UHGV virus genome: UHGV-0360189
DNA from: a virus
Length of the DNA: 30,757 bases
Reading direction: 5' to 3' (one strand)
Below the pieces are notes generated by a model that saw nothing but the letters and a program-made list of their open reading frames with translations, ran no database searches and had not been told where the DNA came from. The position numbers were made by a program, and so were the translations under genes. Below, one piece after another: positions 3,971 to 7,464 of the stretch (within the stretch, counting starts at the first letter, position 1; each line of letters opens with the position of its first letter).

Positions 3971-4294
3971 ATGAAGATGCCAGAAAAACATGACCTGTTA
4001 GCCGCCATTCTCGCGGCAAAGGAACAAGGCATCGGGGCAATCCTTGCGTTTGCAATGGCGTACCTTCGCGGCAGATATAATGGCGGTGCGTTTACAAAAA
4101 CAGTAATCGACGCAACGATGTGCGCCATTATCGCCTGGTTCATTCGTGACCTTCTCGACTTCGCCGGACTAAGTAGCAATCTCGCTTATATAACGAGCGT
4201 GTTCATCGGCTACATCGGTACTGACTCGATTGGTTCGCTTATCAAACGCTTCGCTGCTAAAAAAGCCGGAGTAGAAGATGGTGGAAATCAATAA
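3971..4294 (+). CDS. S: Holin S (S107 antiholin / S105 holin, dual start)
   Basis: ORF track 3971..4294, 107 aa, [34 protein letters not shown]... matches lambda S; Met1-Lys2-Met3 dual-start motif and three hydrophobic segments. Confidence 0.92.
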
Positions 4295-4754
4295 TCAACG
4301 TAAGGCGTTCCTCGATATGCTGGCGTGGTCAGAGGGAACTGATAACGGACGGCAGAAAACCAGAAATCATGGTTATGACGTCATTGTAGGCGGAGAGCTA
4401 TTCACTGATTACTCCGATCACCCTCGCAAACTTGTCACGCTAAACCCCAAACTCAAATCAACAGCAGCCGGACGTTACCAGCTTCTTTCACGTTGGTGGG
4501 ATGCCTACCGCAAGCAACTTGGCCTGAAAGACTTCTCTCCCAAAAGCCAGGACGCAGTGGCATTGCAGCAGATTAAAGAGCGTGGCGCTTTACCGATGAT
4601 TGATCGCGGTGATATTCGTCAGGCTATCGACCGTTGCAGCAATATCTGGGCTTCACTGCCGGGCGCTGGTTATGGTCAGTTCGAGCATAAGGCTGACAGC
4701 CTGATTGCAAAATTCAAAGAAGCGGGCGGAACGGTCAGAGAGATTGAGGTATGA
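4278..4754 (+). CDS. R: Endolysin R (lytic transglycosylase)
   Basis: ORF track 4278..4754, 158 aa, [39 protein letters not shown]... matches lambda R; overlaps the S 3' end by 17 nt. Confidence 0.92.
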
Positions 4755-5209
4755 GCAGAGTAACCGCGATTATCCCCGCTCTGATTATCTGCATCATCGT
4801 CTGCCTGTCATGGGCTGTTAATCATTACCGTGATAACGCAATCGCCTACAAAGAGCAGCGCGATAACAAGGCCAGTGAACTGGAGAAGGCGAACGCCACC
4901 ATCGCTGACATGCGGAAGCGTCAACGTGATGTAGCAGAACTCGACGCAAGATACACAAAGGAGCTTGCTGATGCTAACGCGACTATCGAAAGTCTCCGTG
5001 CTGATGTTTCTGCTGGGCGTAAGCGCCTGCAAGTCGCCGCCACCTGTGCAAAGTCAACGACCGGAGCCAGCGGCATGGGCGATGGAGAAAGCCCAGGACT
5101 TACAGCAGATGCTGAACTCAATTATTACCGTCTCCGAAGTGGAATCGACAAGATAACCGCGCAGGTTAACTACCTGCAGGAATACATCAGGACGCAATGC
5201 CTGAAATAA
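4751..5209 (+). CDS. Rz: Rz i-spanin (inner-membrane spanin subunit)
   Basis: ORF track 4751..5209, 152 aa; N-terminal transmembrane segment ([18 protein letters not shown]) followed by a coiled-coil-like periplasmic domain; ATGA overlap with R. Diverged from lambda Rz in the C-terminal half. Confidence 0.85.
4965..5156 (+). CDS. Rz1: Rz1 o-spanin (outer-membrane lipoprotein), embedded in Rz in the +1 frame
   Basis: ORF track 4965..5156, 63 aa; lipoprotein signal with lipobox-like VSAC followed by a proline-rich mature region ([13 protein letters not shown]); lies wholly inside Rz, as in lambda. Confidence 0.72.
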
Positions 5210-5241
5210 TTTTTTTGCAAATCACAAAGTCCATTTAATGA

Positions 5242-5263
5242 GCCTCGCGATGCGGGGCTTTTT
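5242..5263 (+). terminator. Candidate intrinsic terminator 1 downstream of Rz
   Basis: Imperfect hairpin GCCTCGC-gat-GCGGGGC (5242-5258) followed by a short T-run (CTTTTT). Free energy not computed. Confidence 0.4.
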
Positions 5264-5270
5264 GCAATAA

Positions 5271-5295
5271 ATGCGTACCGCAACGCATGTTTTTT
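5271..5295 (+). terminator. Candidate intrinsic terminator 2 downstream of Rz
   Basis: Perfect 6-bp stem ATGCGT/ACGCAT (5271-5276 / 5283-5288) with loop ACCGCA, then G and TTTTTT (5290-5295). Confidence 0.5.
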
Positions 5296-5410
5296 ACACC
5301 GAACCTGCCCCTTTGGAATGGGCCTTTGAGGATACCAGTTAGTGCTGGCGAGCCTCGGCGGGCTGGTTTCCTGTGCGGCAAAGGTTCATTTCAAAGAGTA
5401 GGTACACGCT

Positions 5411-5908
5411 ATGAAATCATTAACCCTCTTCAATCAACCAATTCGTATCGGTGAAGATGGCATGATCTGCCTCACTGATATGTGGAAAGCCAGTGGTAAA
5501 AGTGAATCTGAATCGCCTTACCACTACCTGCGAAACAAGCAGACCAAAGAGTTCTTAGCCGAGCTGGAGAAAAACCACGAATCTGTGGTTTTTACTGAGC
5601 GCGGTGTACACGGTGGAACATATGGCGGGAAGTTTGTTGCTTACGATTATGCGGCTTGGTTAAACCCCGGGTTCAAGTACGCGGCCTATAAAGTCCTCGA
5701 TGACTACTTCACCGGAGAACTTCAGCATCGCAACAGCTTAAGTGCGCAGCTCAACATGAAATGTCATGAGTTTGACCAGAAGAAAGACATGGCGAGCTTC
5801 TGCGGACAAGGGCTGGCAGCATGGCGCTATACGAAGCCAGTGTTGGTCGCTGAGATTAACTCCCTGGCTAACCAGCTGCAGATTACGATCCCCGGGCTTC
5901 CGGGATGA
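5411..5908 (+). CDS. KilA-N-like domain protein (accessory, function unknown)
   Basis: ORF track 5411..5908, 165 aa. The N-terminal region (IRIGEDGMICLTDMWKASGKSESESPYHYLRNKQTKEFLAELEK) resembles the KilA-N/APSES-type DNA-binding domain as I recall it; not verified by profile search. Sits where lambda has bor. Confidence 0.45.
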   Translation: MKSLTLFNQPIRIGEDGMICLTDMWKASGKSESESPYHYLRNKQTKEFLAELEKNHESVVFTERGVHGGTYGGKFVAYDYAAWLNPGFKYAAYKVLDDYFTGELQHRNSLSAQLNMKCHEFDQKKDMASFCGQGLAAWRYTKPVLVAEINSLANQLQITIPGLPG

Positions 5909-6174
5909 GTGATCGTGTTATTGAATGCGCCTCCAGAGCGGGGCGCGACTTCTCAGAGTTCATGAAAGGCGAGAAGGGCATGATGGAAGCATTGGCCTCG
6001 GTGGATGAGTTTGGCGAGCAGCTGCGCCTCAACGGCTGTGTCAATCATCACTTTGTTAGCTACATGATGCGGAACTCGATCATGCAGGCATTCATGGACA
6101 TGGCAAAAGCCGAGAGGAAAGAAGAGCGCCGGCGTAAGCGAGCGGAAGCAAAAGCAAAAGCAAAAGTGAAGTAG
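5905..6174 (+). CDS. Hypothetical small protein with basic Lys/Ala-rich C-terminal tail
   Basis: ORF track 5905..6174, 89 aa; start overlaps the upstream stop (ATGA), suggesting translational coupling with the KilA-N-like gene; C-terminus KAERKEERRRKRAEAKAKAKVK. No family recognised. Confidence 0.5.
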   Translation: MSDRVIECASRAGRDFSEFMKGEKGMMEALASVDEFGEQLRLNGCVNHHFVSYMMRNSIMQAFMDMAKAERKEERRRKRAEAKAKAKVK

Positions 6175-6398
6175 CCATTACAAAGCCCATTTACGGGTGG
6201 GCTTGATAATGAAACCGGAATTTATTCTGGGCCACCAGTTAACGGCAGTACCACGAAACAACCCAAGCCAGTAAGTGGGGAAATAACACCGGCAGCCACT
6301 GAAAGATGAACCTCCTGCCTTATGGCAAAAAAGATTCTTTGTGGTGGCGGACTGATGGAAAGACATCCTAATTTCAGCCAAACATTGAAGGAGTTGTT

Positions 6399-6470: not shown

Positions 6471-6762
6471 TGCCATCACAAAAGCCATTCCCTACAGAGT
6501 GGCTTTGATAATGGCTTATACCCTACACGGGATAACTTAACTGATATCCCTTTTAAAGGATAAAGGTATTCAAGCCTGACACATCATGCGCTGTATCGTC
6601 GCCGTATTCCCGTATTAACAGAGACCGTAGCCCGACGGGGAACTCCTTCTGCGCGAGTGTGCGGGAATAATCAAAAACGATGCACACCGGGGTTACCGGG
6701 TACACATATTTCATCATGCCAGCGAGTCCGGTTCTGGCACGGAAGAAACCGGACGTTATGAT

Positions 6763-7188
6763 TTAGTGCGGAAATATTTGTGTAGTGTTCTGAATGTTCT
6801 CAGTAAAGAGTAATGAATTATCAAAGGTATAGTAATACCTTTTGTTTTCGTGGATATTTGTAATCCATCTGAAAACCCCTGCTGTAGCAAGATTTTTCCT
6901 GTATTCGTAAAATGATAACTCTCCTGATTTGAATCCTTTTAAGGTGGCTTCTATAAGGCATTTATTTTTTGAAAATCTTACATTTACAACCTTACCCTGT
7001 CCTTTTATTAAAACCGTATTATCGTTTTCAAGAACAAGATGAATATTCTCTGTGGCTAAATAGTAAATGTAATGTGAGACATTGTGACGTTTTAGTTCAG
7101 AATAAAACCAGTGATAGTTTAAATTATTTCGCACTTTATCGAATATTTGTTTAAAAATGGCAACCTGAGCCATTGTAGTACCTTCCAT
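6763..7188 (-). CDS. AT-rich accessory protein, YdfO/YbcV-like (DUF1398-type as I recall), function unknown
   Basis: ORF track 6763..7188 (-), 141 aa. A more likely start is the second ATG (about 7173, [11 protein letters not shown]...) preceded by GGAAGG. The gene is markedly AT-rich by eye compared with the flanking lambda-like genes. Family assignment is from memory of E. coli cryptic-prophage genes next to the nu1 homologue, not from a search. Confidence 0.6.
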
Positions 7189-7230: not shown

Positions 7231-7464
7231 TCAATCTGGTCTAACCTGTTTTCTGAGCAATTCAGTAATGTCACTCTTTTCTTTGTTTGCTTCAGGCGAA
7301 ACTCTTTTTTCTGAGCACAGTCTCCGGCGGCAGGCTTCAATGACCCAGGCTGAGAAATTCCCGGACCCTTTTTGAACAAGAGCGATGTTAATTTGTTCAA
7401 TCATTTGGTTAGGAAAGCGGATGTTGCGGGTTGTTGTTCTGCGGGTTCTGTTCTTCGTTGACAT
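7231..7464 (-). CDS. Small ribbon-helix-helix-type DNA-binding protein, YnfO/YlcI-like
   Basis: ORF track 7231..7464 (-), 77 aa, MSTKNRTRRTTTRNIRFPNQMIEQINIALVQKGSGNFSAWVIEACRRRL... Basic N-terminus then a pattern compatible with an RHH (Arc/MetJ/CopG-like) fold; lies immediately left of cos and upstream, on the same strand, of the AT-rich gene. Confidence 0.6.
   Translation of the reverse strand: MSTKNRTRRTTTRNIRFPNQMIEQINIALVQKGSGNFSAWVIEACRRRLCSEKRVSPEANKEKSDITELLRKQVRPD

Follow-up and report, generated by a model that had tools for sequence, protein, structure and literature searches.

A KilA-N gene and its coupled partner behind a conserved structured leader in the rha slot of a lambda-like prophage

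The rha slot and the relatives of the cassette

In phage P22, 15/Rz1 is immediately followed by rha, which starts approximately 150–220 nt past gene 15 and encodes a protein composed of a Phage_pRha and an ORF11CD3 domain. Rha is described as being made from the late operon and as preventing lytic growth in hosts deficient in integration host factor (IHF), a phenotype known only for Rha of phi80 and P22 (cited in PMC4936722); tight control of its expression would therefore make sense. The same slot is occupied by another KilA-N gene in ST104, by the genes for gp73 and HK97p61 in HK97 (as well as HK022 and the mEp phages), and by hkbK and hkbL in HK620. Here, we analyzed a 30,757-nt stretch of viral DNA (UHGV virus genome UHGV-0360189; the whole stretch is hereafter called the window), which by its gene order and Pfam matches is a lambda-like prophage and carries two overlapping open reading frames (ORFs), ORF1 and ORF2, in this slot. 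With a probability of roughly 60%, we regard the pair as an accessory Bro-network cassette of the late operon, in which a DNA-binding regulator and its coupled partner are held down by a terminator and a structured leader.

The pair is not new, as it has already been annotated in many E. coli and Salmonella phages. A 1.2-kb region is 94–99% identical to ECP1, PhiR49_1, the Stx phages 1717 and 2851, and HK620, and ORF1 is 96–100% identical to its counterparts in HK620 (hkbK), ECP1, and PhiR49_1. It is annotated as "KilA-N-ORF11CD3" in ECP1 and PhiR49_1 and as "kilA" in the two Stx phages, while the RefSeq names are "KilA-N domain-containing protein" for ORF1 and "hypothetical protein" for ORF2. 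HK620 hkbK and hkbL are the same genes, with the same ATGA overlap and position after Rz. Residues 1–66 of ORF2 are identical in HkbL, and no difference is substantive; the latter is shorter (85 aa versus 89 aa) owing to a (GCAAAA)n repeat. In 5426 complete E. coli genomes, ORF1 DNA was present in 504 and ORF2 DNA in 427 (~8–9%). The pair is thus widespread, and the original prediction, which had presented it as distinctive of this prophage, has to be revised on this point. A literature search on hkbK, orf201, PhiR49_1, and KilA-N plus ORF11CD3 retrieved no functional study of the pair. Two database records deserve mention. A contig binned as "Candidatus Nanosynbacter" contains an E. coli-type segment (Rz/ORF1/ORF2/DUF1398) at 99% identity, probably through contamination of the bin, and the record of Actinobacillus phage vB_Apl-pPE4 contains ORF1 at 96% identity together with a truncated ORF2.

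The domain content of ORF1 is well defined. A KilA-N-like region had been predicted, and a Pfam profile search confirmed it: residues 9–101 match KilA-N (PF04383; E = 1.3e-15, 57.6 bits at a gathering cut-off of 23.8, profile positions 8–106 of 107). Residues 109–161 match ORF11CD3 (PF10549; E = 2.4e-13, 50.5 bits at a cut-off of 25, profile positions 1–54 of 54), a domain absent from the original prediction, and the Pfam scan revealed no match of ORF1 to Phage_pRha (PF09669). In PHROGs, ORF1 belongs to phrog_129 ("transcriptional regulator"). The AlphaFold2 model (predicted local distance difference test, pLDDT, 84.5) comprises an alpha/beta domain (residues 1–84) followed by two long helices (residues 86–130 and 132–156). 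A Foldseek search of this model against PDB returned nothing significant (best E = 0.79; the APSES protein Mbp1 ranked second, likewise non-significant, E = 0.79).

The C-terminal 68 residues of P22 Rha are 35% identical to those of ORF1 (E = 2e-8), a match that extends through the terminal IPGL, whereas the head is Phage_pRha in Rha and KilA-N in ORF1. Since KilA-N replaces the pRha domain, ORF1 is best classified as a domain-swapped counterpart of Rha and not as a member of the Rha family. A 191-aa protein (P0147) combines a Phage_pRha head with a C-terminal part that is 97% identical to ORF1 over 77% of the ORF1 length, and it represents a recent natural head-swap between Rha and the KilA-N gene. 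P22 further shares with the window an almost identical leader and a 3' block, both described below; however, P22 rha has no ORF2 partner. The pair had originally been compared to lambda bor, which, as stated at the time, lies on the minus strand immediately 3' of Rz. P22 rha is nevertheless the closer comparison, because it is a late-operon Bro-network gene with the same slot, leader, and C-terminal domain. IHF control as for rha was considered and rejected, the consensus WATCAANNNNTTR being absent from the whole window.

HK97 provides the second informative comparison. Its gp73 and HK97p61 genes have the slot, the flanking terminator, and the leader family in common with the window, and HK97p61 belongs to the same family as ORF2 (66–98% identity). 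By contrast, gp73 (242 aa) is a KilA-N + P63C protein whose KilA-N part is only 23% identical to that of ORF1, and the two HK97 genes are separated by a 2-nt gap instead of overlapping by ATGA. Nucleotide homology between the window and HK97-type cassettes (blastn) covers 5200–5263 and 5920–6367, excluding the ORF1 region, which indicates that the KilA-N gene was swapped between constant flanks.

Both ORFs are real genes under purifying selection and not chance ORFs, given the substitution patterns relative to the copy in a Klebsiella phage. For ORF1, the proportions of nonsynonymous (pN) and synonymous (pS) differences were 0.17 and 0.78, respectively, and for ORF2, the ratio of nonsynonymous to synonymous substitution rates (dN/dS) was 0.10 (0.09–0.29 versus other distant copies).

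The structured leader upstream of ORF1

Two terminator-like hairpins had been noted between Rz and ORF1. The region contains three hairpins. The first is a typical intrinsic terminator; in HK620, HK97, Klebsiella RAH1, ST104, P22, and at the locus L101, a comparable hairpin with a T run likewise stands ahead of the leader. The largest, which is among the structures originally called terminator-like, is a conserved leader predicted to sequester the Shine-Dalgarno sequence of ORF1. In the window, this hairpin has a minimum free energy of −50.9 kcal/mol (z = −3.87; 0 of 200 shuffled sequences were as stable). At its base, ACCUGC pairs with GUAGGU, the Shine-Dalgarno region of ORF1, and the Shine-Dalgarno 5-mer is paired with a probability of 0.99.

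Upstream regions could be aligned even between unrelated coding sequences. Folded singly, the leaders form a small hairpin with a GCGC stem, followed by a long hairpin, at the base of which a CCUU(U)-type stretch is paired to an AAAGG- or UAGGU-type Shine-Dalgarno region. In the alignment, a GCGC..GCGC hairpin occupies the position equivalent to 5271–5288 in every leader type. A covariance model (R1) built from ten leaders of another subtype matched the window at 5306–5413 over its full length (43 bits, E = 6e-8) and also matched all other subtypes, but it found no match at two loci, L098 and L105. Rfam searches of the window and three related loci at gathering and permissive (E < 10) thresholds revealed no relevant family for the leader.

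A plain MAFFT alignment analyzed by RNAalifold had produced only a weak consensus, with indels in the arms misaligned; hence, the sequences were aligned to the covariance model (97 sequences, 90 distinct). Standard pairs filled 95.6% of the cells (76.6% in shuffles), and cells with double changes numbered 489 compared to 151 in shuffles. Changes on both sides were found in 25 of 28 pairs. In the outer helix, which, like the 3' side of the apical stem, was left free by the patterns used for sequence retrieval, 12 of 13 pairs showed double changes. The covariation score was 0.536 versus 0.199 in shuffled alignments, and fell below 0.1 when partners were slid by 1–3 columns. Several pairs are split almost evenly between two states (GC:48/CG:42, CG:47/UA:42, and AU:45/GC:44). 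G-U pairs are frequent, as expected of an RNA read from the + strand, since their complements on the other strand could not pair. In an alignment-free approach with 139 distinct leaders, the mean pairing probability of the Shine-Dalgarno 5-mer was 0.82 (median 0.92), compared to 0.54 with the upstream sequence shuffled.

Three sequence patterns retrieved the leader at 281 places in IMG/VR, 268 of which were followed by an ORF of at least 80 aa within 90 nt. The 165 distinct complete products include 59 of the Rha type, 35 KilA-N + P63C proteins, 24 KilA-N proteins of the ST104 type, and 16 of the ORF1 type; P22_AR_N-like, T5orf172, and HNH-AP2 proteins are found among the remainder. At least five Bro-network architectures are represented in all. 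The leader subtype of the window was present in 835 of the 5426 complete E. coli genomes, and a single genome contained as many as five copies. In a Scandinavium prophage (L013; leader at 2577–2682), another ORF lies between the leader and a KilA-N + P63C gene. Its C-terminus resembles that of an HNH-AP2-like protein located behind the leader at another locus (L181), and it may be an extra gene inserted between leader and Bro gene.

The leader also bears on the annotation of rha genes. In P22, the annotated GTG start of rha (39575) falls within the leader hairpin, and the ATG at 39644, preceded by a GAAGG Shine-Dalgarno sequence, is likely the true start, resulting in a protein of 178 aa and not 201 aa. 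At the E. coli copies of the leader, the RefSeq annotation, if there is any, is a gene named "Rha family transcriptional regulator" that overlaps the leader in the same way through an over-extended 5' end, and the mis-annotation looks systematic.

Hairpins that sequester a ribosome-binding site gate the T4 genes e, soc, and I-TevI, Aeh1 mobE, and the Gifsy-1 IsrK system; in the case of mobE, a terminator is located upstream of the hairpin as well. As in these systems, the hairpin in the window ties up the ribosome-binding site of an accessory gene that is potentially harmful. It differs in that no sequence or covariance-model relationship to IsrK or any Rfam family was found, and in that no internal late promoter is evident.

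The leader corresponds to an RNA that has been detected during infection. A survey of small RNAs in P22 infection (2026) described the 89-nt RNA P22F, AAUGGGCCUUUGAGGAUACCAG...GAAGAAGGCA (PMC13397905). Infected cells contained P22F at 2054 reads per million, whereas uninfected cells had none; reverse transcription PCR (RT-PCR) validated the RNA, which was listed with "no known function"; the authors drew an analogy to Gifsy-1 IsrK (PMC13397905). Compared to the window from position 5318 onwards, the first ~80 nt of P22F match save for one base, whereas its final ~9 nt do not. P22F begins within the 5' arm of the hairpin, 3' of the anti-Shine-Dalgarno stretch. This suggests that the gene may be activated by removal of the anti-Shine-Dalgarno strand, since the ribosome-binding site would be free in an RNA with this 5' end. 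A second RNA from the same survey, P22G (204 nt), covers the 3' end of rha and the directly following block (PMC13397905). The part of P22G past the rha stop is homologous to positions 6238–6367 of the window; the window thus differs from P22 by an insertion of ORF2 and a hairpin that separates the Bro gene from this block.

The coupled partner and the mobility of the cassette

No Pfam or NCBIfam family matched ORF2, and NCBIfam had no match for ORF1 either. In PHROGs, ORF2 belongs to phrog_875 (function label: unknown; E = 3.7e-54, positions 1–85 of 85). It carries the conserved motifs ECASRAGRDFSEF and GCVNHHF, and ends in KAERKEERRRKRAEAKAKAKVK, a tail rich in Lys, Arg, Ala, and Glu. The AlphaFold2 model (pLDDT 90.6) consists of three helices (residues 3–20, 26–42, and 48–88), with the basic tail on the last one. 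No significant structural neighbors were found in PDB or BFVD (best E = 1.7 and 0.17, respectively). The family is narrow, with 138 clusters in a set of 5.8 billion proteins, all from Enterobacterales where the source was named, and only 20 members in an exhaustive profile search of 1.84 billion protein representatives. Elsewhere, the ORF2 domain forms the N-terminal part of fusions with T5orf172/MUG113 proteins (hhalign probability 94%). According to Iyer, Koonin and Aravind (2002), this N-terminal position in T5orf172 fusions is reportedly the one normally held by Bro-network DNA-binding domains. As its domain takes this place, ORF2 looks like a further Bro-network module.

A zinc site in ORF2 was considered, because C8, C45, H48, and H49 are invariant among close relatives, but it was rejected, as more distant homologues (P0122 and the T5orf172 fusion) do not retain C8, H48, and H49. 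Part of the tail is encoded by a hexanucleotide repeat, (GCAAAA)x3, at 6148–6165. The lengths of ORF2 homologues (85, 87, or 89 aa) vary solely with the count of Ala-Lys units, a pattern suggestive of slippage at this repeat.

The lengths of both ORFs, their place after Rz, the ATGA overlap of the ORF2 start with the ORF1 stop (5905–5908), and the basic tail all agreed with the original prediction, which had further proposed translational coupling. Neither the window junction nor any homologous junction examined contains a Shine-Dalgarno sequence before ORF2, and all of them show an overlap or a 2-nt gap. Tight translational coupling of ORF1 and ORF2 is supported by this arrangement. A GC-rich hairpin (CCCGG-GCUU-CCGGG, 5891–5904) finishes one base 5' of the ORF2 ATG. 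It would need melting by ribosomes translating ORF1 and is missing from the Klebsiella and HK97-type junctions.

At every locus with enough upstream DNA, the gene abutting the ORF2 homologue is a Bro-network gene, for which we found four architectures. These are KilA-N + ORF11CD3 as in ORF1 (ATGA or 8-nt overlap with ORF2), KilA-N + P63C as in HK97 gp73 (2-nt gap or 4-nt overlap), a 234-aa Phage_pRha protein (ATGA overlap), and Phage_pRha + ANT (2-nt gap). The latter two lie in Arc/Arc/antirepressor operons resembling P22 immI. We additionally counted how often ORF2 follows in a sample gathered via the leader and hence blind to ORF2. All 18 full-length genes of the ORF1 type were followed by ORF2, consistent with the expected co-conservation of the pair, as were 27 of 48 gp73-type genes, but none of 61 Rha-type and none of 29 ST104-type KilA-N genes.

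These counts bear on the idea that the cassette is a toxin-modulator pair, in which ORF1 would kill the host or inhibit its growth in the manner of KilA, and ORF2 would act as antidote or modulator in a fixed ratio. KilA-N is named after KilA of phage P1, whose expression kills the host, and Rha is inhibitory in IHF-deficient hosts; the ATGA coupling and tight control also recall toxic gene pairs. However, an antidote acting through specific protein-protein contact is hard to reconcile with the partners of ORF2, which comprise four architectures that share hardly any sequence similarity or none, and ORF2 is missing after the Rha and ST104-type genes that have the same leader. Furthermore, the ORF2 domain is elsewhere fused to a nuclease-like domain. 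We therefore consider such a pair quite unlikely. With regard to a type II toxin-antitoxin pair, Pfam, NCBIfam, and PADLOC revealed no toxin-antitoxin domains in either ORF, and the promoter scan returned nothing.

The tail of ORF2 raises another option, namely that ORF2 is an RNA-binding autoregulator whose arginine-rich stretch EERRRKRAEA opens or closes the leader or binds another RNA. We take this stretch to resemble the arginine-rich motif of P22 N (HERRRKLAIE), and a structured RNA is present in the same cassette. Against this, ORF2 occurs without the leader at L098 and L105, the leader mostly occurs without ORF2, and the tail is of low complexity and variable in length, so that this function seems very improbable.

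The pair is not confined to the position after Rz. It was also found between tail genes in a Klebsiella phage and, in an Enterobacter prophage, between the genes for tape measure and Dit; in another phage, a gp73-type version is flanked by head genes. The orientation of the cassette matched that of its neighbors in every context seen. Because the pair occurs in tail or head operons of unrelated phages, it is a mobile cassette. It is dispensable for the phage, as lambda lacks it and truncated copies are common. One could go further and regard it as a selfish recombination or homing module, in which the leader mainly provides a DNA boundary for the exchange of Bro-network and nuclease genes without benefit to the phage. 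The leader is indeed also found ahead of T5orf172 and HNH-AP2 genes, homology breaks at the leader and at ORF2 codon 6, and hybrids such as P0147 exist in addition to the truncated copies. Yet the compensatory changes and abundant G-U pairs of the leader point to selection on RNA structure beyond DNA identity, both ORFs show purifying selection, and Pfam identified no nuclease domain in the window, which together make a purely selfish module rather improbable.

The features of the locus are compiled in Table 1. ORF1 starts 202 nt after the Rz stop and is co-oriented with the late operon. Homology to the cassettes of ECP1, PhiR49_1, and the Stx phages ends at position 6211, i.e., with the hairpin that follows ORF2. 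The conserved 3' block is kept beside ORF2 in HK97, HK620, and the mEp phages; a match to Rfam Proteo-phage-1 at 6262–6297 was weak and non-significant (E = 1.2). A second hairpin (6472–6515) is similar to that at 6176–6211, as each closes with ...UGGGCUU/UGGCUUU and then GAUAAUG. It opens a 68-nt block (6497–6564) with conservation in HK97 and HK620; the block overlaps "orf25" of P22, whose status as a real gene is doubtful. Two opposite-strand genes lie between the cassette and Nu1, encoding DUF1398 (YbcV/YdfO-like) and DUF3950/YlcI-YnfO proteins, families that are presumably also represented in the cryptic K-12 prophages DLP12 and Qin. PHROGs labels the DUF1398 gene "head protein", and the equivalent interval of lambda contains lambdap78, likewise called "head protein" and on the minus strand; the likeness is one of position and label.

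Table 1. Coordinates of genes, RNA elements, and conserved blocks in and around the cassette.
Feature	Position	Strand	Description	Basis
Holin	3971-4294			
Endolysin	4278-4754			
Rz	4751-5209		Directly upstream of the ORF1 region	
Intrinsic terminator	5240-5263	+	Stem GAGCCUCGC/GCGGGGCUU, then U run (UUUU); upstream boundary of the cassette	Fold
Small hairpin	5271-5288	+	AUGCGU-accgca-ACGCAU, then U run	Fold
Structured 5' leader	5303-5403	+	One long hairpin, apex 5351-5364	
ORF1	5411-5908	+	165 aa, start ATG; KilA-N + ORF11CD3 Bro-network protein, = HK620 hkbK	
ORF2	5905-6174	+	89 aa; three-helix protein with basic C-terminal helix, = HK620 hkbL (phrog_875)	
Hairpin right after the ORF2 stop	6176-6211	+	CAUUA..AAGCCCA...UGGGCUU..UAAUG, without U run	Fold
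Conserved 3' non-coding block	6238-6367	+	Common to HK97 and HK620	blastn boundaries
DUF1398 gene	6763-7188	-		
DUF3950/YlcI gene	7231-7464	-		
Terminase Nu1	from 7853			
Terminase A	from 8373			

Expression, proposed mechanism, and implications

A consensus scan of the + strand between Rz and ORF1 (5200–5410) revealed no sigma-70-like promoter, and none was recognized by scan or by eye between the terminator and the leader. This speaks against the earlier view of the pair as independently expressed, bor-like cargo, as does its co-orientation with the late operon in every context. The same data bear on the possibility that the pair is a moron or defense system expressed in lysogens, comparable to bor or BstA, and shields the host from other phages. 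BstA is prophage-encoded and has a KilA-N-like N-terminal domain (PMC8585504), the order of terminator, gene, and hairpin is moron-like, and residues 60–90 of ORF1 partially match the PADLOC candidate model PDC-S22 (E = 1.2e-8). However, PADLOC assigned no defense system to the pair and ORF1 did not match the BstA model. BstA is a 307-aa two-domain protein, whereas ORF1 has 165 aa and an ORF11CD3 tail. BstA also has its own C-terminal domain, is encoded next to the repressor locus, and is produced in lysogens (PMC8585504); ORF1, in contrast, is located in the late operon, always co-oriented with it, with its Shine-Dalgarno sequence buried and without a detectable promoter. A bor-like moron, for which an envelope or lipoprotein product would be expected, also fits poorly, the products here being a predicted DNA-binding-type protein and a modelled soluble helical protein. 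Taken together, we consider a lysogen-expressed pair unlikely.

Several points weigh against the late-operon cassette that we favor. The ends of P22F could be decay products and not processing sites, and a promoter that is weak or depends on a factor could escape a simple consensus scan. The alignment used for covariation had been fitted to the model; moreover, the two arms of one inner helix were both prescribed by two of the three retrieval patterns, which makes part of the signal a matter of ascertainment. ORF2 is also found behind pRha-type genes without the leader (L098 and L105), and many leader genes lack ORF2; the parts of the cassette are thus separable, and their joint action may be doubtful. 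Finally, the activities ascribed to ORF1 and ORF2 are predictions from sequence and models.

With these reservations, the late-operon cassette could be expressed as follows. Q-modified late transcription from pR', reading through the terminator, would be the sole source of cassette transcripts, and the leader would keep ORF1 translation low until the anti-Shine-Dalgarno strand is removed or opened. ORF2 would be made only by ribosomes that finish ORF1, because it has no ribosome-binding site of its own. ORF1 would most likely act as a Rha-like or antirepressor-like DNA-binding regulator in lytic growth, with ORF2 as a companion Bro-network module that probably binds nucleic acid or a target. 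A more far-reaching proposal, which we put forward only tentatively, is that the covarying hairpin of ~100 nt (the P22F element) serves as a riboregulator of an unclassified kind, controlling the translation of a whole network of potentially toxic phage DNA-binding and nuclease genes (Rha, KilA-N, P22_AR_N, T5orf172, and HNH-AP2). It would be opened by a specific event, such as a trans-acting factor or a cleavage removing the anti-Shine-Dalgarno strand, and the HkbL-type protein would be a new Bro-network module that acts with these regulators in conflicts between mobile elements.

Beyond annotation, the Rha slot of lambdoid and P22-like phages emerges as a site of interchangeable Bro-network genes behind one shared structured leader, which until now had been seen in P22 only as an unexplained abundant small RNA. 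HkbL-type proteins likewise emerge as a constant, translationally coupled companion of several Bro-network architectures. Leader and partner offer concrete handles on a decades-old question, i.e., what role Rha and KilA-N late genes play and why their expression is held down.

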